From NCBI RefSeq assembly GCF_018977255.1, contig NW_024704742.1, forward strand, positions 127,722,001-127,786,000: a DNA stretch of 64,000 bases, given 5' to 3'. Below, piece after piece: positions 10,986 through 62,389 of the stretch (its first letter is position 1; each line of letters starts with the position of its first letter). The position numbers and the translations under genes are program-made. The notes below the pieces were generated by a model. The model made no database searches and was not told where the DNA came from. It was given only the letters and a program-made list of their open reading frames with translations. The stretch comes from Callorhinchus milii (lineage: Eukaryota).

Positions 10986-11570
10986 AAAATACTGCAGATG
11001 CTGGAAATCTGAAACAAAAACAGAAGTCGCTTGGAACACTCAGCATGTCAGGCAGCATCTATAGAGAAAGGAAAGTGAGTCAACTTTTCAGGTCCATGAC
11101 CCTTCATCAGAACTGGGGAATGTTGGGAGGGAGAGGCTTTTAAGGGATAACAGAAAGGGGGGAGGCAGGGCAAGTAAGACAAAGGAGAAAATGGGGTAGA
11201 GGACAGGAAATGATGGGTTAAGGAGGTGTTAATGATGCAAAACAAAGGGGGGATTGCAACAAACCAGGGGAATACAGGTGTTAATAATGCAGAACAAAGG
11301 CGGGGGGGTGGAATTGCAATAAAATAGGCAGACCAGAGAGAGAAAAGGTGTGTTTGGGATCCAGATGATGTGGTAATGGTCACAGAAGAGGGGGAGGGGG
11401 AAGATGAGCTGTTATAGTCTGAAATTGTTGAAATCAATATTGAGGCCAGAGGGCTGTAAGGTCCTGAGCAGATAAATGAGGTGCTGTTTCTCGAGCTTGC
11501 GCTGTGGCTCATTGGAACAATGTAGGAGACTGTGGATGGAGAACTCAGAGTGGGAGGGAGAGTTGAAGTG
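10986..11570 (-). mobile_element. Penelope-like element 3' fragment (GIY-YIG endonuclease C-terminus plus terminal repeat region)
   Basis: Peptide HFNSPSHS...LLHC.NE.QRKLEKQHLIY.L.TLQPSGLNIDF* at 11412-11570 is typical of PLE endonuclease ends. It is followed by CTGATGA..GAAA and ATAGATGCTGCCTGAC..GCTGAG...CCAGCATCTGCAG. GCAAGGA(A/T)TATTAT flanks both sides (10960, 11571). Confidence 0.82.
11080..11116 (-). ncRNA. Degenerate hammerhead-ribozyme-like core in the Penelope fragment
   Basis: CUGAUGA-A-GGGUC-AUG-GACCU-GAAA: both core boxes and stem II are present, but the base after GAAA is A rather than the usual C. Confidence 0.5.
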
Positions 11571-11635
11571 GCAAGGATTATTATTGTTTACTAAGTGAAT
11601 ATTCAGGACATAACCCACAACACAGCCAGTTTTTT

Positions 11636-21690: not shown

Positions 21691-22776
21691 AACTGCTGTT
21701 GTTATCAACGTATGTTACAATGGCTGTGAGGATCACAGTGAAGCAGATTTGATCACTAACTAGGAACATTGGACTGTGGGATTAACACGACATACCCAAG
21801 ATTAGGAATACCAAACTGGCAAAGACCAACAAACAGTCGACTTGCAATTCGTGATTCACCATTTCGCGAAACTCATGATCTGATATTCCCAAAGCATTGT
21901 TTGCAATTAAACAATTGAATCCGGTTTGTGAATATCGGAATTCAAACCCTCCATAAAGGAAACTTTTCAGGGTCACTCTGTACTTCATTAGATTTAAGAT
22001 TCAGTACTGCTTTGGTCTCGAACATTTATTTGAAAAGAAATTCCCGTTCCACTGCACAGACTAACTATAATCAGACACAGCTAAGGCAGTACTTTATTAC
22101 TTCCATGATGTCAGGGCCTCAGTACATTGTATAAATTTATACCACATGTTGCCAACACTTATTTAGTAACTGACTTTCTGCATTAAATTTGCTTCACGAG
22201 TGTATATTGCACTCCTGATTAATACTGTATGTTGCTTTGTTGCGCTGCCAAGGTTTCATATTTCATCTTGTCAATTCTTCTCTAAACACGGCACATAAAG
22301 GGGGAATTAACTTGTTTTTATTTAGTGTAAATGAATAGTTTTCCTTCTTTGAACCAAACAGGAAACAACGCATCATGGTTAAGTGCGAATGGGCTGGGAA
22401 GACCTTGCTTTCTTGGATGTTGTTCCTAATATATTAAGAGGCTGCTGGCATGGAACAGTCCAGTGGGAATTAATCTGGGAGGATCTGTTATCTGTGAAAC
22501 AACTTGGAAAAGTGTCCCTGTGAGAAACCAGCATGAGACCTTGCCTGGCGGTTATAGAACAGTGTGCCAGGCATTGAGAACATGAACATCTTCCTTTGGC
22601 TGTCATCGTAAACTTATTTCCTCACTTACACTTCTCTTGAACAAAGTGACAACCGAGTCTAAGATGTGAGAGTTATACAACAACAACAAGATTCCATTTA
22701 TAGAGCGCCTTTCACGTCAGGAGGACGTCCCAAGGCGCTGCACAGTTGGGTCATGACCCGAGCAGGGGGGAAATGG

Positions 22777-25700
22777 TCAGGGTGAGGGGAGGGAAGGGAG
22801 GGAGAGAGGAGGGGGAAATGGTGAGGGGAGGGAAGGGAGGGAGCGAGGAGGAGGAAGAGAGTCGAGAGGGGAGCTGAAGGCACGGTCAAAGAGAAAGGTT
22901 TTGAGACCGGCCTTGAAGGAGGAAAGGGAGGAAGCAAGGCGAAGGCACTGGGGGATGGAGTTCCAGAGCCTCGGGGCTGAGAGGCTGAAGGCCCGACCAC
23001 CGATAGTAGGGCGGTTGGGGCGGGGGACGTGGAGCAGACCGGAGCCAGAGGAACGGAGGGTACGGGCAGGTAGGTAGGGGGATAGTAGGTTGGAGAGGTA
23101 GGAGGGAGCAAGGCCGTGAATGGCCTTGTAGGTGAGGATGAGGATCTTGAAATCAATCCTCTGGGGGATGGGGAGCCAGTGGAGGCGAGCGAGGGTGGGA
23201 GTGATGTGGTCCCGAAGCCTGGTGCGGGACAGTACACGAGCTGCAGAGTTCTGAATGACCTGCAGCTTGTGGAGGGAGGTGGCGGGAAGGCCGGCGAGGA
23301 GAGAGTTCCCATAGTCCAGCCTTGAGGTGACAAAGGCGTGAACCAGGGTTTCAGCAGCGTGAGGGGTGAGGTAGTGCCGTAATCTGGCGATATTCCGGAG
23401 GTGATGGAAGGCGGTGCCAGTTGTGGTGCGGATGTGAGGGAGAAAGGACAGCTCAGGGTCGAACAAAACGCCGAGGTTCCTGACTGGCTTTGAGAGGTGG
23501 AGAGTGCAGCCTTGGATGCTGATGGTGTCAGCGCCTGAGGTGCGGAGGCGCTGACGTGAGCCAATCAGGAGGGCCTCGGTTTTTTGCACGTTGAGCTGAA
23601 GAAAGTTGTCTCTCGTCCAGGACTCGATGTCGGACAGGCAGGCTGTCAGGACATCGGTGGTCGTGGAGTTGAGAGTAGAGGAGGAAAGGTAGAGTTGGGT
23701 GTCATCCGCATACATGTGGAAGTTAACCCCATGTTTGCGGATGATGTCACCAAGGGGGAGCATATAGAGGGTGAAGAGGAGGGGACCGAGGACAGAGCCC
23801 TGAGGGACACCACATGAGACAGTACGGGGGGTGGAGGAGAAGCCATTCGTTGAGACGAAGTGAAGACGGTGGGAAAGGTAAGAGCTAAACCATTCAAGGA
23901 CAGTGCCTTGAAGGTTGAGGTGGGAGGACAAGCGGTGGAGTAGGATAGCGTGGTCGACCGTATCGAATGCTGCCGATAGGTCGAGGAGGACGAGGAGACA
24001 GAGGGAGCCCTGGTCACAGATGGTCAGGATATCATTGGTGACCTTGACCAGGGCAGTTTCTGTGCTATGAGCAGCACGGAAACCTGACTGAAGGGGTTCA
24101 AAAAGAGAATGGGTGGAGAGGAAAGAGCGCAGTTGGGAGGCGACAACTCTTTCCAAGACCTTGGAGAGAAAGGGGAGGTTGGAGATGGGCCGGTAGCTTG
24201 ATAGCTGCGACGCATCAAGGGAGGGTTTTTTCAGGGTGGGCGTGATGATGGCAGTTTTTAATGGAATGGGGACAGAGCCAGAGGAGAGGGACAGGTTTAT
24301 GATGTCAGTGATGTGTGGGGCAAGAAAATGGAGCTGGGAGATAAGGAGTGGAGTGGGGATGGGGTCAAGGGAGCAGGTGGTTGGTTTTAGGGATAGGATG
24401 AGTTCAGTGACAGAGGGTGGGGAAACGGGTACGAAGGTGTGTAGGGGAGGATGGGTAGGAGTCGGAGTGTGGGAGGGAAGGGGTGGGTGGTGGGTGGAAG
24501 TTGGAGGGGAAGTGACCGCGGAGCGGATTCCCTTGATCTTGGATTCAAGGAAATCCAGCATCTCCTCGCAGTGAAGGTTGGAGGAGATGACCTGCGCGGG
24601 GTGGCGGGGGGGACGGAGGAGTCGGGATGTGGTGGAAAACAGTAGCCTGGGGTTGTTCTTCGCCTCCAGGATTATCCTGGAGTAGAAGGACGACTTGGCC
24701 GAGGCTAGAGTGGAGCGGTAAATTTTGAGGAGGTCCAGCCAGATTTGTCGGTGGACCGTTAAGCCGGATTTGACAAAGGTGCGCTCAGCAGCCCGCACCT
24801 GGCATTTCAGTGAGCGGAGGTGGGTGGTGTACCAGGGGGAGGAGCGGGAGTAGGAGACAGTGCGGGAAGTGATGGGGGCAAGAGTATCGAGTGTGGAGGA
24901 GAGGATATTGTGGAGGAGGGAGAGAGGAGAAGAGGGGTCGGTGAGGGTTGAAGGCCAGAGGGAGAGGAGTTCAGAGGACTCCAAGGCATCGGTTAGGGAT
25001 TGTGGGGGTAACTTCTTCCAAGGGCGGTAGAAGATGGTGGTGGGTCTGGTGGAGGTGGGGAGGGGGGTGGAGGTGGTGAAGGAGATGAAGTAGTGGTCGG
25101 AGATGGCCTTGTCGGTAATAGTGACATCCGAGACACTGAGGCCCCGGGTGATCACCAAATCGAGTGGGTGGCCGTGACTGTGAGTGGGGGAGTTTATGTG
25201 TAGGGAAAGGTTGAGTGAGGAGAGCAGGGAAGAGAAGTCTGTGGAGATGGAGCAGGAGGGGGTGAAGTGTAGGTTAAAGTCGCCCAGGATGATGAGGCGA
25301 TCAGAGCAGAGGCAAAGAGATGTGAGGAGTGTTGAAATGTCAGAGATGAAGGTGGGAGAGGTTTTAGGGGGCCGGTAGAGGAGGAGGATTTTAAGGGAGA
25401 GGAATGAGGGGTGGGAGAGGGTGAGGTGCTCGAAGGAGGGGAAAGAGCCAGTGGAGTAGGGGGATAGGGCAAGTGGTGTCCTTGAGATAAGGGCAACACC
25501 ACCGCCACGGCGGTTGGGGCGGGGGATGTGGTGGGAGGTGTAGCCGGGTGGCGTGGCCTCCGTGAGGGGGAAGGTGTCGCCTGGGGTGAGCCACGTTTCT
25601 GTCAAGGCCATGATATCAACGTTCTCATCAAGGATGAGATCGTTGATGACCAGGGCCTTGTTGCAGAGGGAGCGGACATTTTGCAGTCCGATGTGGAGGG

Positions 25701-26076
25701 AGCGGTTGACAGAAGGGTGTGTGGGAGGGGAGGGGGGTCCAGGTTGTGAGGCAGGGGTGGGGGAGATGGGGATGAGGGAGGAGAGGTTGACTCCCCGGGT
25801 CTGTGTCCGGGGTGGCTGGCGAGAGTGGTGGGGAATGGGGCAGTCGGTGTGGCTGCTGCTGGACAGCCAACGCCGAGTGCCACGGTGAGCCCGGCGGAGG
25901 ATTCCCAGACTGGAACAGAGGGAGGTTGTGGGAGGGTCAAGTGGGGATAGAAGACGAGAGGGACGGAGAGAGAGGAGGAGAGAGCGGGAGAGATGCAGAG
26001 GGGGGAGGGTTTGGGGGGAGAGAGGAGGGGGGAGGGAGGGAGGGGGTGAGGGGGCTCGGGTCAAAGCGGCAGCCAT
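22777..26076 (-). CDS. L2 ORF2-type polyprotein: apurinic-like endonuclease plus reverse transcriptase (~1099 aa from the first ATG)
   Basis: APE motifs: [42 protein letters not shown] motifs: [51 protein letters not shown]2-type C-terminus LHWLPI. The ATG at 26076 has a good Kozak context (ACTATGG); the ORF track starts at an upstream GTG (26085). Confidence 0.95.
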
Positions 26077-26179
26077 AGTGCGCACGCGGGGACCGGGAGC
26101 GAGCGGTCAGGTGGATGGCATTATCCCGCAGATTGGGGCATCGAACCCAACAGGACCATAGTGGGCTCTGATGTGAGCC

Positions 26180-26201
26180 CTGGGGGGGGAGGGGGGCGCA
26201 G

Positions 26202-26238
<37 letters not shown>

Positions 26239-26318
26239 TGCGCGCGCACTCACCTGAAAACTAATCTATGACGTCGCAGTTCCCCCGCTCCGCCCCCACC
26301 CCTCCCTCCACTGCCGAG
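26180..26318 (-). promoter_or_regulatory. L2 5'UTR: GC box, CRE-like TGACGTC, consensus splice donor CAG|GTGAGT, A33 run, candidate acceptor
   Basis: Motifs read directly: CCGCCCCC at ~26290, TGACGTC at 26269-26275, donor at 26254/26253, T33 on + at 26205-26237, pyrimidine tract plus CAG ending at 26180. Confidence 0.5.
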
Positions 26319-26845
26319 CTGCACTCGCTCCGGCGTCGAGTTTAAGTACCTGGGTCAGTAGGCCCAGGCTCCTCCCCGCGCTGTCCTGCCGCCGCTCCCC
26401 GACTGGCTGCACTCGCTCCGGCGTCGAGTTTAAGTACCTGGGTCAGTAGGCCCAGGCTCCTCCCCGCGCTCTCCTGCCGCCGCTCCCCGACTGGCTGCAC
26501 TCGCTCCGGCGTCGAGTTTAAGTACCTGGGTCAGTAGGCCCAGGCTCCTCCCCGCGCTCTCCTGCCGCCGCTCCCCGACTGGCTGCACTCGCTCCGGCGT
26601 CGAGTTTAAGTACCTGGGTCAGTAGGCCCAGGCTCCTCCCCGCGCTCTCCTGCCGCCGCTCCCCGACTGGCTGCACTCGCTCCGGCGTCGAGTTTAAGTA
26701 CCTGGGTCAGTAGGCCCAGGCTCCTCCCCGCGCTGTCCTGCTGCCGCTCCCCGACTGGCTGCACTCGCTCCGGCGTCGAGTTTAAGTACCTGGGTCAGTA
26801 GGCCCAGGCTCCTCCCCGCGCTCTCCTGCCGCCGCTCCCCGACTG
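26319..26845 (-). repeat. Six tandem 88-bp GC/CpG-rich monomers at the L2 5' end
   Basis: Unit starts at 26319, 26407, 26495, 26583, 26671 and 26759. Only about 2 variable positions between units. Confidence 0.97.
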
Positions 26846-26879
26846 CAATAACAAGAATCTTTATAACAAGATTTATCAT

Positions 26880-27300
26880 CATAATAATAATCCTTGCATG
26901 ATATAGCACCTTATCACCACATTGAGACATCGCAAAATGCTTCACAGCACTTATTGTAAAGTGTAGTGACTGTGTATTTTGTAGGTGCACATGGCAGCCA
27001 ACTTGCTCACAGCAATGCCCCACAAATAGCTATGCAGTGACTGACCAATTATATCTTGTGGATCGGTGGCCTGGAAACCAAGAGAAACTCCTTTCTCTTT
27101 TCCAGTTGTCCCACAAAATCTTTAAAGTCGTCATGAACAGTCAGGGTGGAACTGTAGTTTAATGTCTCATCCGAAGGACGACACCTCCAACAATACAGCC
27201 CATTCCTTCACAGCACTGGAGTGCCAACAGAGCTTGTGAGCTCAAAGTCCTGAGTGAATGCGGCTTGAACCCACAACCTTTTGACCAACTGAGCAGTTGG
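26880..27300 (-). mobile_element. DeuSINE
   Basis: Reverse Deu core, head and (ATT)n tail. Confidence 0.8.
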
Positions 27301-27689
27301 ACTAAAACCAGATTAAAACTGATATGCAGTGGATTTGTAAGTATTGAAGTCTACAGATGAAAACCACCCAACCTGTGGGAACTGCTCTAAACTCCCAGAA
27401 GGAGATTGCACTGCATTGAACTTTGCACAACCAATCAGCTTTGTATTAAATATTGATGAGGACTTTGAGAACATCGAAACTGGGTTCGACACCTTCAGAC
27501 CCAAATATCCACAATTCATATCTATTGAAATTGTTCATTTACAAAGATCTTGAAGATTAAGCATTTCATGTAGAAAAAACACATGGTTTGTTGTTTTTTC
27601 CTTTTTTTAAGTGTTCAGAATCTGGGATTACAATACCTAACAGCACTAACAAGGCAAATAACAAGGTTAATAAGGCCATAAAAAGGCAG

Positions 27690-28140
27690 AACTGAGAGGT
27701 TATACCTATCAGGAACATGCTTGGACTCTCTTCTCTTTAAAAAAGGGGAGGGTAAAGGGGTGACCTGATACAGGTCTTTAACATGATGAAAGGTTTTGAT
27801 AGGGTAGACATAGAGAAGATGTTTCCACTTGTGGGGGAGACCAAAACCAGGGGCCATCAATATAAAATAGTCACAAATAGATCAAATAGGGAAGTTAGAA
27901 GAAATTTCTACAGACAGTAGCGGGAATGTGGAACATGATACCACAAGGAGTTGTTGAGGCAAATAGCATAGATGTATTTAAGGGAAAGCTAGATAGGTAC
28001 ATGAGGGAGAAAGGAATTGAAGGTTATGCTTGAAGGCTTAGTTGAGGAAGGGCAGGAGGAGGGTCATGTGGAATATAAACACCAGCATAGACCAGTTGGG
28101 CCGAATGGCTTGTTTCTGTATTATATATTCTCATGTATTC
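27690..28140 (+). mobile_element. CR1 LINE 3' end
   Basis: GDLIQVF.MMKGFDRVD.EKMFPLVGETKTRGHQYK peptide; 3'UTR TTGGGCCGAATGGC.TGTTTCTG. Confidence 0.88.
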
Positions 28141-43560: not shown

Positions 43561-44261
43561 ACACATGAGAAAATGCCTCTTGGTCTGTTTGTCAAGTGGT
43601 GTCAACTAAGAGTCCATTTCTTTGGGGAAAAAAGAGGATACATTTGGGAGAATATTATTAAAACTTATATAGGATCAGCCTCACAGAAGGAGGAAACTGG
43701 AGAGTTGAGCCAGTTTAAGTTGCTTTCACGTACTTCTTAACAACATGGATAGAATCCTGGGCGTCAATCTGTCTGTCTCCCTGCTCCATATCAGATGGAA
43801 TACTAAAGGAGAGCTGAAATAGTGAAATGAAGAATTTTTTTTGATGAAATCTGGTCAATATGAAACTTCTGGATGGAAGCTTTCTTCTGTTAGAACATTA
43901 ACAGAGACTTTATTTTTAAATCACGAAGCATTGCAACTTTAAGCCCCAACTGGTACAACATGACACCTGCTCCAGGGATTACAAAGTTCAGCTTGATCCT
44001 TTGCAGCATATCACATGTCAGAAATACACATGAGAAGCATTAAGCTACAAATGGATCCCGTGAGAAACGAAATGACACTTCAAATGTATAAGTTCCGAAA
44101 ATATGAAATAACTACATAGCTGTTGTTTGATGAAATAGATCACACATAAGATACCAGTCTACAAATTGTGGCATGTGAGGTTGAATAAATACTTGCTCTG
44201 AAGTTCTTGCAATAGATCAAGGGAATCCTTATATTGGTTATAATGTACAATATTACTACTT

Positions 44262-47200
44262 AAACAACAACAACAAAATTACATTTATAGAGTGCCTTTC
44301 ACGTCGGGAGGACGTTCCAAAGCGCTGAACAGTCAGGTGTCGGGGCCCGAGCATGGGGGAGGGGTGGTATAGGGGTGAGGGAAGGCAGAGAGGTGGGAGG
44401 GAGACCAAAGGCACAGTCGAAGAGAAGAGTCTTGAGACCGGCCTTGAAGGATGTGAGGGAGGAAGTGAGACGAAGGCACTGTGGATGGAGTTCCAGAGTG
44501 TGGGGGCAGAGCGGCTGAAAACCCGGCCACCGATGATAGGGCGGGTCGGGTGGGAGACATGGAGCAGACCGGAGACTGATGAACGGAGGGAACGGGCAGT
44601 TTGGTATGGAGTCAGCAGATCAGAGAAGTAGGAGGGGGCAAGGCAGTGGATGGCCTTAAAGGTGAGGACGAGGATCTTGAACTCGATCCTCTGGGGGTTG
44701 GGGAGACAGTGGAGTCAGGCGAGGGTGGGAGTGGTGGGTTTGCGGAGCCTGGTGCGTGAAAGTACACGAGCTGCAGAGTTTTGGATGATCTGCAGTTTGT
44801 GAAGGGAAGAGTTGAGAAGGCCGATAAGGAGGGAGTTCCCGTAATCAAGCCTTGATGTGACGAATGCATGAGTGAGGGTTTTGGCAGCCTGAGGGGTGAG
44901 GCAGTGGCGGAGTCTGGTAATGTTACAGGGGTGGCGGTAGGCAGTGCCGGTCATGGTGCGGATTTGGGGGAGAAAGGACAGTTCAGGGTCAAACAAGACC
45001 CAGGTTCCTGACTGGCTTAGTGAGGTTGAGTGTGCAGCCATGGAGGCTGATACTGCCAGTGCCTGAGGTGCAGAGGCGCTGGAGCGAGCCAATCAGGAGG
45101 GCCTCGGTCTTGTTGACTTTGAGTTGGAGAAAGTTGGCCCTCGTCCAGGACTTGATGTCGGACAGGACCTCAGTAGTCCTGGAGTTCAGGGTGGAGGCAG
45201 AGAAGTAGAGTTGGGTGTCATCCGCATACTTGTGGAAATTTACCCCATGTCTGCAAATTACGTCACCAAGGGGGAGCATATAGAGGGTGAAGAGGAGGGG
45301 ACAGAGCCCTGAGGAACACCGCACGAGAGAGTGCGGGGGCTGGAGGAGAAACCGTTTGCCGCAACAAAGTGGAGGCGGTGTAAAAGGTAAGAACTGAACC
45401 AGTCAAGGACAGAACCTTGAAGGTTGAAGTGGGAGGAGAGGCGGTGGAGGAGGATTGGTCCACTGTGTCAAAGCTGGCGGTGAGGTTGAAGAGGACGAGG
45501 AGGCAGAGGGAGCCCTGGTCACACCTGGTCAGGATATCGTTTGTGACCTTGACCAGAGCAGTTTCCAATTGGAGGGGCTCATAAAGGGAGTGAGAGGAGA
45601 CGAAAGAGCGAAGCTGGGAGGCAACAGCTCTCTCTTGGGTAGGAAGGGGAGATTTGAGATGGGCCGGTAGCTAGATAGCTGTGATGGGTCGAGGGAAGGT
45701 TTTTTCAAGGTGGCAGTGATAGTGGCCGTTTTGAGGGAGAAGGAACAGTGCCAGATGACAGGGAGAGGTTAATGATATTGGCGAGTAGTGGGGCATGGAG
45801 GTGGAGCTGGGATTTAAGGAGAGGGGTTGGGATAGGATCGAGGGAGCAGGTGGTGGACTTCATGGAGGTTACTGTGTTGAAGATAGAGGAGGGGGTGACA
45901 GGTTCAAAGGTGTGGAAGGAAGGATGGGTAATTGTCGGATAGGTAATTCTGTGGGGTGGGGGTAGGGAGGGGTTGGAAGTTGGGGGGGCAGTGACAGCTG
46001 TGAGAATTGGAGGTGTGTCGGGGAGGGCGGAGGACCCGGTTAGTGGTGGAGAACAGGAGCCTGGGATTGCCATTTGCCTCCAGGATTAACCTGGAGTAGA
46101 AGGATGATTTGGCTGAGGGAGAGCAGAGCAGTAGGTTTTGATGAGGTCCAGCCAGATGTGGTGGTGGACTGTTCATTCAGAACTCTGCAGCTCGTGTACT
46201 GTCCCGCACCAGGCTTCGGGACCACATCACTCCCACCCTCGTTCACCTCCACTGGCTCCCCATCCCCCAGAGGATCGATTTCAAGATCCTCATCCTCACC
46301 TACAGGGCCATTCACGGCCTTGCTCCCTCCTACCTCTCCGACCTACTATCCCCCTACCTACCTGCCCGTACCCTCCGTTCCTCTGGCTCCGGTCTACTCC
46401 ACATCCCCCACCCCAACCGCCCTACCATTGGTGGCCGGACCTTCAGCCTCTCAGCCCCTAGGCTCTGGAACTCTATCCCCCAGTGCCTTCGCCTTGCCTC
46501 CTCCCTTTCCTCCTTCAAGGCCGGTCTCAAGACCTTTCTCTTTGACCGTGTTTTCAGCTCCCCTCTCGACTCTCTACCCCCTCCTCGCTCCCTCCCTTCC
46601 CTCCCCTCACCCTGACCATTTCCCCCTTGCTTGGGTCCTGACTCAACTGTACAGCGCCTTGGGACATCCTCCCGATGTGAAAGGCGCTCTATAACTGGAA
46701 TCTTGTTGTTGTTGTTGTTAGGCCGGATTTGACCCAAGTGCGTTTGACAGACCGCACCTGGCCCTTAAGCAAGTGAAGGTGGCTGGAGAACTAGGGTGAG
46801 GAACGGGAATAGGAGGCAATTCGGGAGGTGAGTGGGGCAAGGATGTCGAGTGTGGTGGAGAGGGTGCTGTGGAGAAGAGTGAGTGCTGTGAGTGGATTGT
46901 TGTGAGAGGTGTGCCAGAGGGGAAGGAGATCAGAGGACTCCAGGGCAGCAGAGAGGGATTGCGGGGAGATCTTCTTCCACAGGCGGTATCAAATGGTGGT
47001 AGGTTTGGAGGCAGCGGGGAGAGGGATATGGGAGTTGAGGGAGATGAAATGGTGGTCAGAGATGGCCTTGTCAGTGATGGTGACATCCAAGACACTGAGG
47101 CCTCGGTGATCACTAGGTCGAGCGGGTGACCGTGGGTGTGGGTAGCAGAGTGGATGTGGAAGGAGAGGTTGAGAGAGGAGAGGAGAGAGGAGAAGTTTGA

Positions 47201-47295
47201 GGAGATGGAGCAGGAGGGGGTGAATTGGAGGTTGAAGTCGCCTAGGATGATGAGGTGGTCAGAGCAGAGGTTGAGGGAAGCAAAGAGAGTGGAGG
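44262..47295 (-). mobile_element. Long degenerate L2 copy (APE to RT to tail, frameshifted), interrupted by a younger L2
   Basis: Broken ORFs with [19 protein letters not shown] and [13 protein letters not shown] region at 46720-47295; (CAA)n at ~44262. Confidence 0.93.
46174..46719 (+). mobile_element. Young 5'-truncated L2 inserted antisense into the older L2
   Basis: Highly similar to the 3' end of the full-length element; the host sequence rejoins as GTGGACTGTT|AGGCCGGATTTGAC. Confidence 0.93.
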
Positions 47296-47539
47296 TTAGG
47301 TTTCCCCACCAATAACACCAAGTTACTACAGTACTGTCTTAGTGAATCTTGTTGTGAACAAGATGCTTAACCTCTCTCCAAATAGCATTCGAGGAAAGCT
47401 AGATGCTAACTTTAAAGATAAACTTACACTGGAGTGTTAGCGCTCTATCCCATTCTGGAATTTTGCAGAAAATACAATGACATTAAGTATTATCTTGAAA
47501 TCTCTGACTGATAATGGGCATTTGCCACCAGCGTTTGCC

Positions 47540-50424: not shown

Positions 50425-50795
50425 CAGATCTTTAAAGTTATGAACAGTTTTATCAGAGTAAATAGGGAGAAATTATTTCCACTGGTTAGTGAGTCAGTAA
50501 CTAGAGGGCACAATTTAAAATACTTAGTGAAGTTAGTCAGCAAACGGAAGTTTAAAAGAAAAAATTCTTGCACAGAGTAATTAGGAATGGAATACCCTGC
50601 TGGGAGTAGTGGTTGAGGTCAAATCCATATTGACCTTCAAGAGGGAACTAGAGAGATATTTTGAAAAGAGTCAGCTACAGGATATGTAGCAAAGCCAGGG
50701 AAATGGGACTGAAAGGATTGCTCTTGAGGGAGCAGGCACAGATACAATGGGCCGAATAGCCTTCTTCTGTGCCATAACTTTTGATGGTTCTATGT
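50425..50795 (+). mobile_element. CR1 LINE 3' end
   Basis: EKLFPLV.ES.TRGH coding remnant and ATGGGCCGAAT.GCCT.CTTCTGTGC tail. Confidence 0.8.
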
Positions 50796-50814
50796 TTCAA
50801 TGATATGGAACTGT

Positions 50815-51286
50815 ACCCTATTACCCCCACCCTCCCCCGGTTCCACTGGCTCCCCATTCCCCGGAAGATAGAATTTAAAATCCTCAATCTCGCCTTCAAA
50901 GCCCTCCACGGCCTTGCTCCTTCCTACCTTTGTGAGATGCTAACACCATATCAGCCTGTCTGCTCCCTCCGCTCAGCAGGTTCTGACCTGCCCGCCCGCT
51001 CCACCATCAGTGATCGGGCCTTCAGCCACTCTGCTCCCACCCTTTGGAACTCCATCTCACAGTCCCTTCACCCCACTTCCTCCCTTTCCTCCTTCAAGGC
51101 CCGTCTCAAGACCTTCCTCTTCGACCGCGCCCTCCTACCACAACCCTCCCTGCCCTCCACCCCTCCTGATCCCAATTACCACCCTCCCCACCATTTGGGT
51201 CCACATCCCTTACAGTCCAGTGCCTTGGGACGTCTTCCCGACGTGAAAATCGCTATCCAAATGTAATTCATTGTTATTGTTGTTGT
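50815..51286 (+). mobile_element. L2 3' fragment
   Basis: PITPTLPRFHWLPIPRKIEFKIL...[13 protein letters not shown]; stem-loop and tail. Confidence 0.9.
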
Positions 51287-58598: not shown

Positions 58599-59950
58599 AC
58601 AGAAACTGCCCTGGTCAAGGTCACCAATGACATCCTGACCACCTGTGACCAGGGCTCCCTCTGCCTCCTCGTCCTCCTCGACCTATCGGCAGCATTCGAT
58701 ACGGTCGACCATGCTATCCTCCTGCACCGCTTGTCCTCCCACCTAAACCTTCAAGGCCCTGTCCTTGAGTGGTTTAGGTCGTACCTCTCCCACCGTCTTC
58801 ACTTTGTCTCCACAAATGGTTTTTCCTCCGGCCCCCGCACTGTCTCGTGCGGTGTCCCTCAAGGCTCTGTCCTCGGTCCCCTCCTCTTCACCCTCTATAT
58901 GCTCCCCCTTGGTGACATCATCCGCAGACATGGGGTTAACTTCCACATGTATGCGGATGACACCCAACTCTACCTTTCCTCCTCTACCCTCAACTCCACG
59001 ACCACCGATGTCCTGACAGCCTGCCTGTCCGACATCGAGTCCTGGACGAGAGATAACATTCTCCAGCTCAACGTGCGCAAAACTGAGGCCCTCCTGATTG
59101 GCTCGCGTCAGCGCCTCCGCACCTCAGGCGCTGACAGCATCAGCATCCAAGGCTGCACCCTCCACCTCTCAAAGCCAGTCAGGAACCTCGGGGTTCTGTT
59201 CGACCCTGAGCTGTCCTTTCTCCCCATATCCGCGCCACAACTGGCACTGCCTTCCATCACCTCCGGAATGTCGCCAGACTACGGCACTACCTCACCCCTC
59301 ACGCTGCTGAAACTCTGGTCCACGCCTTTATCACCTCAAGGCTGGACTACGGGAACTCTCTCGTCGCCGGCCTTCCCGGCACCTCCCTCCACAAGCTGCA
59401 GGTCATTCAGAACTCTGCAGCTCGTGTACTGTCCCGCACCAGGCTTCGGGAACACATCACTCCCACCCTCGCTCGCCTCCACTGGCTCCCCATCCCCCAG
59501 AGGATCGAATTCAAGATCCTCACCCTCACCTACAAGGCCATTCACGGCCTTGCTCCCTCCTACCTCTCCGACCTACTATCCCTCTACCTACCCGCCCGTA
59601 CCCTCCGTTCCTCTGGCTCCGGTCTGCTCCACATCCCCCGCCCCAACCGCCCTACTATCGGTGGCCGGGCCTTCAGCCTTTCAGCCCCTAGGCTCTGGAA
59701 CTCCATCCACCAGTGCCTTTGCCTTGCCTCCTCCCTTTCCTCCTTCAAGGCCGGTCTCAAGACCTTTCTCTTTGACCGTGCCTTCAGCTCCCCTCTCTAC
59801 TCTCTACCCCCTCCTCGCTCCCTCCCTTCCCTCCCCTCACCCTGACCATTTCCCCCCTGCTCGGGTCCTGACCCAACTGTACAGTGCCATGGGACGTCCT
59901 CCTGACGTGAAAGGCGCTCAATAAATGGAATCTTGTTGTTGTTGTTGTTG
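58599..59950 (+). mobile_element. Young 5'-truncated L2 (RT to tail), one frameshift near 59225, possible TSD TGTAAA
   Basis: Highly similar to 22677-24062; YADD intact. TGTAAA precedes the 5' junction and follows the tail. Inserted antisense in an older L2 3' end (58495-58590 and 59950-60015). Confidence 0.95.
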
Positions 59951-60563: not shown

Positions 60564-61165
60564 ACAACAACAACAACAAGATTACATTTTCATGTTGGGA
60601 GGACATCCCAAGGTGCTGGACAGTGGACAGCATTTCAGACCTGAGCTGGGGTCAGGGGGGAGAAGGGATGGGAGGGGAAGGGGGGTGGCCGATGGCATGG
60701 TCGAAGAGGAGGGTTTTGAGGCGGGACTTGAAGGAGGCTAAGGAGGGGGCGAGGCGGAGTGATTGGGGGATAGAATTCCAGAAGTTGGGGGCAGAATGGC
60801 TGAAGGCTCTCCTGCCAATGGTGGGATGGGTGGGTTGGGGGACGTGGAGCAGGCTGGGATCGGCTGAGCAGAGGGAGCGGGCGGGTTGGTAGGGGGTTAA
60901 GAGGTCGCAGAGGTAGGGTGCGGCGAGGCCATGGAGGGCTTTGTAGGTGAGGACCAGGATCTTGAACTGGATCCTCTGAAGAACAGGGAGCCAATGGAGT
61001 CGGGCGAGAGTGGGGGAGATGGGGTCATGGAGTTTGGTGCGGGAGAGGACACGGGCTGCAGAGTTCTGGATTATCTGCAGCCTGTGGAGGGAGGAGTCGG
61101 GAAGGCCGACAAGCAGGGCGTTTGCATAGTCAAGCCTGGAGGTGATGAAGGCATGAACAAGTGTC
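60564..61165 (-). mobile_element. L2 3' fragment, divergent subfamily
   Basis: [18 protein letters not shown]...[15 protein letters not shown]...[11 protein letters not shown]. Confidence 0.92.
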
Positions 61166-62389
61166 ACAATTGGCAATGCTAGTGAATAATAATCCTTGTA
61201 TTTGATATAAACACCTTTCAATCTTAATTTGGAAGCCATTTTTCTACATTCTTAAATTTGTTTTCCCAAATTCTGCTTGATGTTAAATTTAAAGACAATG
61301 ATCTTAATGTAATAATAATCCTTGCATTTGTTGTAGTGTCTTATCACTTCATTGAGACATCTCAAAGCGCTTCAAAGAATATACTGCAAAGTAAATTGAC
61401 TGTATATTTTGTGGGCAAAACACGGCAGCCGATTGTGCACAGAAGTGTCCCACAAACAGTCGTGGATCTTAAAGGTAAAATAATGAGAAATAGTAGGCCA
61501 TGGGTTATCTCAATAAAATATTTAATTTCCATTGTGATTCCTTTGTCAACACTGCCCCTGCTTGCTTGGATTGGATAGTATGGGGGTAAATGTGGTAAGA
61601 TGTCAAGTGACGGCTGATCAAACAGAAGAATTTCTATGTCTTACAATTAGTTCTCTTTTTGAAACCAATGCATTTTTGGATAGGTCACAGGTATATTAGA
61701 GTTGGTAAGGGAAGATTAAGCTAACTATATTTTACCATGATGTGGGCTTGTTCCCATACAATACAATTTACAATGCACTTTACATTGATTTAGTGTCTTT
61801 CATGTCAAGAAGACATCTCATCTCACAGCTTTCCACAGTTCCAGACTTCTGACAAATAAAGTGGCTATATTAAATAGAATAGGCTATTCAGCATTGGGTG
61901 GGTAATCTTCAACTGACTGTGGGATGAAAGTTTGGTACATAATGTGTAGTTATCACTGACAATAATTATCATATCACACACAATATGATTTTGTCCCCTT
62001 AGAGATATTTTGTATGCAAGACCAAGGGCACAAAACAAACCTCTGAAATACAACTCAAACAAAACAGTAAGCATTATTTTATGAAACGTTAGATGTTTCT
62101 ATGTCTCCAAAGCAGCTTCAGCTGTTTGGACAGTTGGTCTGGGAATTAACATTAACACTCCCAGCTACTGTCATAAAAGGGTCAAATTTAATGCAAGACT
62201 ATAATTAATGCAGTCGAAACAGATTTTACTTCATGTCTAGCTTCCTAGAGGGGATTGAGGTAATCTCGAAATGTTCATGCTGGATACAGTTATCTTATTG
62301 ATCCATACGCCATGGGATTGTCTGTGGTTTGTCAGACATGAAAGTGGGATAGTATGTTATTATACCTCATCTATTAATTAATTAATCAA

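Follow-up and report, generated by a model that had tools for sequence, protein, structure and literature searches.

An internal promoter is generally considered necessary for a LINE, since sequence upstream of the transcription start is lost on copying. In the stretch of Callorhinchus milii DNA analyzed here (64,000 nt, hereafter the window), a LINE opens with a tandem array of CpG-rich units, which raises the question of where its transcription starts and how a promoter built from repeated units could outlast repeated copying.

The LINE and its 88-bp units

The element lies on the minus strand, and its parts are as follows.

22678..26845, minus strand: full-length single-ORF L2-type LINE, about 4.17 kb; ends set by comparison with 100 genomic copies
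26318..26845, minus strand: array of six CpG-rich 88-bp units, delimited by TRF
26845, 26757, 26669, 26581, 26493 and 26405, minus strand: unit starts, each CAGTC
26841..26845, minus strand: initiator-like CAGTC of the outermost unit; putative start at either 26844 (the A) or 26845 (the C), as suggested by copy ends
26781..26788, minus strand: the outermost unit's TATA-like box TACTTAAA, at −32 to −25 relative to the next unit's A
26341..26348, minus strand: innermost copy of TACTTAAA, which recurs at 88-bp spacing, one box per unit
26789..26808, minus strand: 6-bp hairpin CCTGGG-N8-CCCAGG of the outermost unit
26269..26317, minus strand: non-repeated G-rich linker with a GC box (26287..26297) and a CRE-like octamer (26269..26276)
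26205..26237, minus strand: internal 5' UTR poly(A) tract, with a poly(C) tract following it (both within 26181..26237)
26121..26159, minus strand: upstream ORF of 12 codons, common to the subfamilies, with length changes in frame
22777..26076, minus strand: ORF2-type protein of 1099 aa with APE endonuclease and reverse transcriptase, uninterrupted
22678..22750, minus strand: 3' stem-loop, supported by folding against shuffles, and (TTG)4 tail

The array (TRF period 88, 6.0 copies, 98% matches, and zero indels over 26318-26845) and the uninterrupted 1099-aa ORF behind it bear out the first-pass annotation, which had placed six near-identical units at the head of an intact LINE. As described there, CAGTC is seen at the start of all six units on the minus strand, and the 5' boundary falls exactly on a CAGTC at 26845, with G as the adjoining base (26846). 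The TACTTAAA box, placed about 30 nt upstream of the next CAGTC, has its first T 31 nt upstream of the next unit's C and 32 nt upstream of its A. The hairpin, present in each unit, does form, but the folding of two units does not exceed that of shuffled sequence (z = +1.12).

ORF2 carries PF03372 at residues 133-328 and PF00078 at 616-869. No ORF of at least 150 aa was found 5' of it (ORF1 is absent), and the gap from the array to the ATG is just 242 nt. The upstream ORF, 83 nt 5' of the ORF2 start, has a good Kozak-like context; its 12-codon frame is open in 98 of the 100 sampled copies, with the ATG missing in 2 of them, and in older subfamilies its length shifts mostly by whole codons. This small frame may replace ORF1 in coupling ORF2 translation. 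The poly(A) and poly(C) tracts occur in all subfamilies and vary in length between copies. The linker motifs, a GC box and a CRE-like octamer, are candidate activator sites kept by every full-length copy; a perfect TGACGTCA stands at the octamer position in many older copies.

A perfect splice-donor-like GTGAGT follows TTTTCAG at window positions 26248-26253 (minus strand), in the young subfamily only; older copies have GTGCGT or GAGTGT there. Such a donor might allow transcripts from the promoter to be joined to host exons. No splice joint from GTGAGT was present among the matches listed from the assembled contigs of four presumed RNA runs, and because the motif is confined to young copies, it was set aside and is not treated as functional. 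Further L2-type fragments, mostly 5'-truncated and from the same or older subfamilies, lie in the window at 2458-2967, 11048-11587, 44256-44714, 46044-47338, 50778-51266, 58599-59924, and 60652-61251.

The proteins nearest to ORF2 are mostly teleost LINE reverse transcriptases (52-56% identity), none labelled L2. The L2 label is provisional, resting on general features of the clade, and it fits the architecture of the element. Members of the L2 clade end in a 3' stem-loop followed by a short tandem-repeat tail and have no poly(A). This trait is matched by the stem-loop here (z = −2.36, with equal folding in 2 of 200 shuffles) and by the (TTG)n tails found across the sampled copies. The ORF1-less architecture, present in this LINE, is reported for several vertebrate L2 lineages in PMC13343379. 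According to PMC4245944, L2-clade insertions have short target-site duplications and extra bases or microhomology at the 5' junction; more than half of 74 copies examined here show candidate duplications, mostly of 4-9 nt, together with extra bases or microhomology; the shortest duplications are perhaps due to chance.

A 21-mer taken from the unique 5' UTR has 229 exact matches genome-wide. The copy sample consists of the first 100 of these matches in contig order, taken blind to the upstream sequence. At least 3400 of the 3596 body bases are covered in 93 of the 100, and an open frame of at least 1090 codons is kept in 25. The LINE family is young and active. On contig C1, all 29 clusters of the unit core sit on an L2 5' UTR (25 adjoin the exact 21-mer anchor, two adjoin the endonuclease motif, and two were read directly), and 90 of the 100 sampled copies extend into the 88-bp unit, the other 10 ending in the linker. 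The 88-bp unit belongs to the LINE family, and the refuting case named in the first-pass annotation, a monomer unlinked to other L2 copies, does not apply. Unit number ranges from 1 to 14 in the sample, with 24 and 27 units elsewhere. Although such VNTR-like variation, from 1 to 27 units, would suit a local minisatellite abutting the LINE by chance, the linkage of both the C1 clusters and the anchor-selected copies to the L2 5' UTR refutes this idea, to which we give almost no credence.

Among distant relatives, a comparable GC-rich array was found in none of the 36 that have an N-terminus and upstream DNA (of 160 loci, many on short contigs with less than 1 kb upstream). One locus (L219, G000:C1:45838278-45839178) belongs to a different LINE, whose upstream sequence resembles, by eye, the esterase-type ORF1 of a CR1 element.

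Phased 5' ends and the A/T box

The 5' ends of the genomic copies are in phase with the units, as expected from the first-pass annotation. The array is reached by 90 of the sampled copies, and 71 of these have their 5' end at a unit start, compared with about 8 by chance (p ~1e-56 against a uniform distribution). Unit start was defined as offsets 0 to 4 with chance extensions curated away, and the 71 include L104 and L105, which represent one duplicated insertion. The phased end probably marks where transcription begins.

The base preceding the A was tabulated for the 58 copies that retain this A, and it was C in 33, G in 17, T in 5, and A in 3. G thus makes up 17 of the 25 non-C bases (p 7e-6 at a null of 0.25; flank background ~0.27). 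L147 has a clean junction composed of the target duplication, G, and AGTC. The G excess fits a copied cap, though some of these G's may come from TTG-like extra bases. Copies starting at C are preceded by G in 9 of 33 cases (counted by eye), a clear excess being absent, and GTC starts are mostly accounted for by target microhomology. At the locus in the window (L101), the G at 26846 had been suggested to be cap-derived; it turned out to be the last letter of a TTG-like flank stretch, and no target-site duplication was found, so that the suggestion does not stand for this copy.

Other 5' ends cluster elsewhere. The 3' foot of the hairpin, a likely stall site of the reverse transcriptase, accounts for five of the 19 within-unit truncations, and truncation directly 3' of the G-rich linker occurs in 8 of 100 copies; stalling is also expected at the 3' side of this linker. 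The main phased cluster lies 5' of the G-tracts, away from such 3' feet. At several 5' junctions (L082, L089, L096, L131, L154, L158, and others), the extra bases duplicate a short piece of the element's own 5' end, which suggests abortive priming and re-annealing.

The TACTTAAA box holds the unit's sole A/T run of at least 4 bases, and a 5-base A/T run falls in the box window in 0.9% of base shuffles. Older subfamilies were collected by pattern searches and by walking up from the endonuclease motif (20 of the 100 listed motif matches were fetched). The box is found in these subfamilies at an unchanged position, as TTTAAA, TTTAAG, or TATAAA; TATAAAG is present in 15 of the 16 pattern matches, and the remaining one (L229) is a chance match and was dropped. 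As judged from CpG retention (0.70 for TATAAA, 0.83 for TTTAA, and 0.96 for CTTAA), the TATAAA subfamily is the oldest, TTTAA intermediate, and CTTAA the youngest. The distance from the box start to the unit end is 29 nt in all 261 CTTAAA units, in all four TTTAAG units, and in 27 of the 28 TTTAAA matches (the odd one being a flank match), and the 14 TATAAA units all have 30 nt, placing TATAAA at −31 relative to the A that follows. An A/T box is thus fixed at −30/−31 in three subfamilies. In L222, the oldest box type is joined to a following unit. The distance from a unit's own start to its box varies (52-55 in the TATAAA class; 46, 53, and 54 in the CTTAAA class), and several positions between the box and the unit end differ between classes. 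Two points leave the fixed spacing supportive and short of decisive: the units of one array do not count independently, and the segment downstream of the box is shorter than the one upstream. Over time the box weakened: the TATAAA of the oldest subfamily is CTTAAA in the most active one.

The usual position of a TATA box is −31. From its sequence and placement, the box would bind TBP and be required for transcription. Mouse oocyte promoters, according to PMC7755920, use TBPL2 and a TATA-like W-box at −31 to −24. By analogy, we speculate that the TATA-like grammar of the unit could target oocyte transcription.

Unit number and probable array growth

Multi-unit copies are concentrated among the youngest insertions. 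Of the copies no more than 3 substitutions from their nearest neighbour, 14 of 17 are multi-unit, compared with 13 of 60 older ones (Spearman −0.45, p 4e-5, 77 copies; 11 of the 100 fell outside the tree and 12 more had no countable unit). Selection against active multi-unit insertions, or recently lengthened source arrays, could account for part of this trend. All age classes include copies with arrays or upstream part-units (L222, L175, L185, L188, L191, L145, L139, L167), indicating that the sources have been multi-unit for a long time. Among complete copies, 48 of 71 have a single unit.

Truncation is unevenly distributed along the array. It affects 18 of 120 passages through units 1-2, whereas from unit 3 onward a single one of 74 passages is cut (Fisher p 0.001; p 0.004 without L105). 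In the 19 youngest copies, the corresponding values are 3 of 19 and 0 of 57 passages (p 0.014). Long arrays that had been reverse transcribed should often be cut in their outer units, and the rarity of such cuts therefore points to growth in place. L104 (G000:C1:137631046-137637545) and L105 (137745493-137751992) form an inverted duplicate about 113 kb apart and are the same insertion. Their flanks are 98.7% alike over 1.5 kb, and they carry 2 and 14 units, respectively. The pair could be a segmental duplication, two alleles, or could involve assembly error. Together, the truncation rates and L104/L105 indicate that long arrays grow in place, in line with the array expansion that the first-pass annotation had invoked for regrowth. 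We infer that long arrays arise at the DNA level, and the data fit a random walk of unit number in DNA with a dead end at one unit.

Regrowth alone could also be explained by units added during insertion, the reverse transcriptase or the second-strand primer slipping back one unit at the 5' end of the RNA. We regard this as improbable. It is favored by the short re-copies of the 5' end at the six named junctions, by the long arrays already present in the youngest copies, and by the fact that expansion through second-strand priming is one of two models put forward for mouse L1 in PMC6454616. However, re-copying of RNA should be truncated equally along the array, yet units 3 and beyond show the single cut in 74 passages given above, and one insertion holds 2 and 14 units in its two copies.

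An additional observation concerns sequence quality. L006 and L237 (G000:C13:8444652-8456300) represent one array start assembled twice over an N gap, and they show a systematic one-base difference in nine units, an assembly artefact. Because of this mismatch, base-level patterns within arrays are not trusted, and the use of unit haplotype order as a record of parentage was dropped.

A proposed relay promoter, its rivals, and known systems

We propose, with a probability of about 0.6, that the array works as a relay in which the TATA-type box of each unit drives a start at the next unit. The 88-bp unit would be a complete small Pol II promoter spanning the unit junction, with GC-rich sites and the TATA-type box upstream and the CAGT initiator and first bases downstream, together giving a sharp start at the A, or the preceding C, of the next unit. 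The capped RNA would open with a whole unit and would lack the upstream unit that gave the TATA box; since that unit is absent from the RNA, a daughter would be shorter than its parent by one unit or more. If inserted with at least two units, a copy would be an unstable GC-rich minisatellite that expands and contracts in place, and expanded copies would become new sources. One-unit copies would have no means of regrowth and would be weak or dead, so that single-unit copies are predicted to be silent. The relay is supported by the family linkage, the phased ends, the G excess, the fixed A/T box, and the variable unit number, which differs even within the duplicated insertion L104/L105.

The junction behind the last unit bears on how much the box can do by itself. 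The last unit also has a box, and a pyrimidine-purine step lies at the right distance behind it in 58 of 91 copies (TA in 54, TG in 2, and CA in 2); one copy of 100 (L074) starts there. Since this junction is nearly unused, the box alone is insufficient for a start, and either the CAGT initiator and probably the following bases are needed or an internal promoter is at work. The relay reading of the first-pass annotation is partly supported, its TATA element being strengthened by the canonical TATAAA at −31 in the oldest subfamily. Against the relay are also the decay of the box in the most active subfamily, the preponderance of C (33) over G (17) before the A, and the single-unit majority, which self-sufficient single-unit sources would give as well.

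The main rival reading gives every unit an internal promoter of the mouse L1 kind, so that sequence downstream of +1 (the unit together with the GC box and CRE of the linker) would set the start. All units including the outermost would then fire, single-unit copies would be active, extra units would add strength, and the A/T box would be a relic or helper. This reading accounts for the single-unit majority and the box decay in the youngest subfamily, explains without extra assumption why unit-less copies are nearly absent (1 of 100), and agrees with activator-like sites that lie downstream and are never lost. It also has a parallel in mouse L1, for which PMC10620060 describes clustered ends, monomer loss, and a YY1 site with the start lying 15 bp upstream of it. 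We nevertheless consider it unlikely. It leaves unexplained the canonical TATAAA at exactly −31 from the next start and the constant spacing from box to start, the youngest copies are mostly multi-unit, and arrays last through three subfamilies even though one unit is a dead end for expansion. Moreover, the YY1 core (GCCATCTT) was not found in the 88-bp unit, from which CCAT and ATGG are absent. Far less probable still is that the phased ends result from RNA cutting or a reverse-transcription stop at the unit boundary, through self-cleavage, splice-like processing, or structure. The other end clusters (at the hairpin foot and just 3' of the G-rich linker) are real, and C is the commonest base before the A, both points in favor of this reading. 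However, the phased end lies 5' of the G-tracts and away from any 3' foot, the G excess fits a cap, and a TATA box is found at −31. A self-cleaving ribozyme or structured RNA was rejected, as the Rfam scan of 22000-28000 matched no ribozyme or other family (the lone chance match, E 0.44, lies elsewhere), and there is no excess folding in two units or in the UTR before the ATG (z = −0.29 against shuffles).

If the relay holds, repetition is apparently how this LINE family retains a TATA box upstream of its start. On a broader reading, which we hold tentatively and at slightly under even odds, a vertebrate LINE has swapped its internal promoter for an upstream TATA promoter and offsets the resulting loss by means of a hypermutable minisatellite: each jump would spend a unit, chromosomal expansion would recharge some copies, and collapse to one unit would silence the copy, much as solo-LTR formation does. 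Unit number would then act as a mutable switch that turns a currently active element on or off and tunes its strength, it would predict source copies, and activity would be set by repeat-length mutation. The family also provides a natural test for an open question in mouse L1, namely how monomer arrays regenerate, with the advantages of a short unit, a sharp start, hundreds of young copies, and dated subfamilies; the truncation statistics already favor growth in place.

The closest known system is the monomeric 5' UTR promoter of mouse L1 (L1Md A, Tf, and Gf), as described in PMC6454616, PMC10620060, PMC9022269, and PMC5381506. Both have tandem CpG-rich units in variable number, a non-repeated tether, and ends clustered within the unit. 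In those sources, mouse L1 daughters lose 0.6-1.8 units (five mouse pairs), two monomers are the reported minimum for L1spa, and regrowth is discussed as unequal crossing-over or second-strand priming (the latter in PMC6454616). In contrast, the unit here is 88 bp rather than about 200, ends are sharp to 1-3 bases rather than spread over windows of 30-40 nt, and the element is of L2 type with a single ORF and a (TTG)n tail, whereas mouse L1, of the L1 clade, has both ORF1 and ORF2. For mouse Tf, start sites are most frequent 15 bp upstream of a YY1 site, and the promoters are called internal; here a TATA-type box stands at −31 in the upstream unit. The word TATA is absent from the text of PMC6454616 and PMC9022269, and the literature search, with Repbase, Dfam, most subscription papers, and the supplements of PMC13343379 lying outside it, found no paper on a TATA box in an upstream LINE monomer.

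The relay also resembles Drosophila HeT-A and Penelope, in which upstream sequence in a tandem repeat drives a downstream copy. PMC2377424 identifies the donor in those elements as an entire upstream element's 3' UTR (a pseudo-LTR), which tandem insertion renews, and describes a TATA-less, internal core for Penelope. The LINE studied here differs in having a dedicated 5' unit renewed by array expansion. The 88-bp unit was not found in the 3' UTR of the element, the matches listed in the window being the six array units. From the box at −31, essential promoter sequence would lie outside the transcript. In Dictyostelium, A-modules can be repeated. TRE5-A has a 200-bp 5' A-module with promoter activity in a non-LTR element, likewise at the 5' end; neither tandem copies nor a TATA box are described for it in the accessible part of PMC3159450.

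Finally, the Fig. 4 legend of PMC13343379 (2026), and likewise that of the preprint, reports in one sentence that ORF1(-) CR1-group elements have a species-specific repeating subunit near the 5' UTR, with 1-5 subunits of 100-500 bp per element. In view of these arrays, the remark in the first-pass annotation that such an architecture was not familiar for L2 holds only in part; the word promoter occurs 0 times in the text, which gives no phase, TATA box, age trend, or mechanism. The array described here differs from these in its 88-bp unit and in reaching 27 units. The LINE family may be among the ORF1(-) CR1-group elements of that paper, and, by analogy, the subunit arrays of other ORF1-less elements of the group may work alike.
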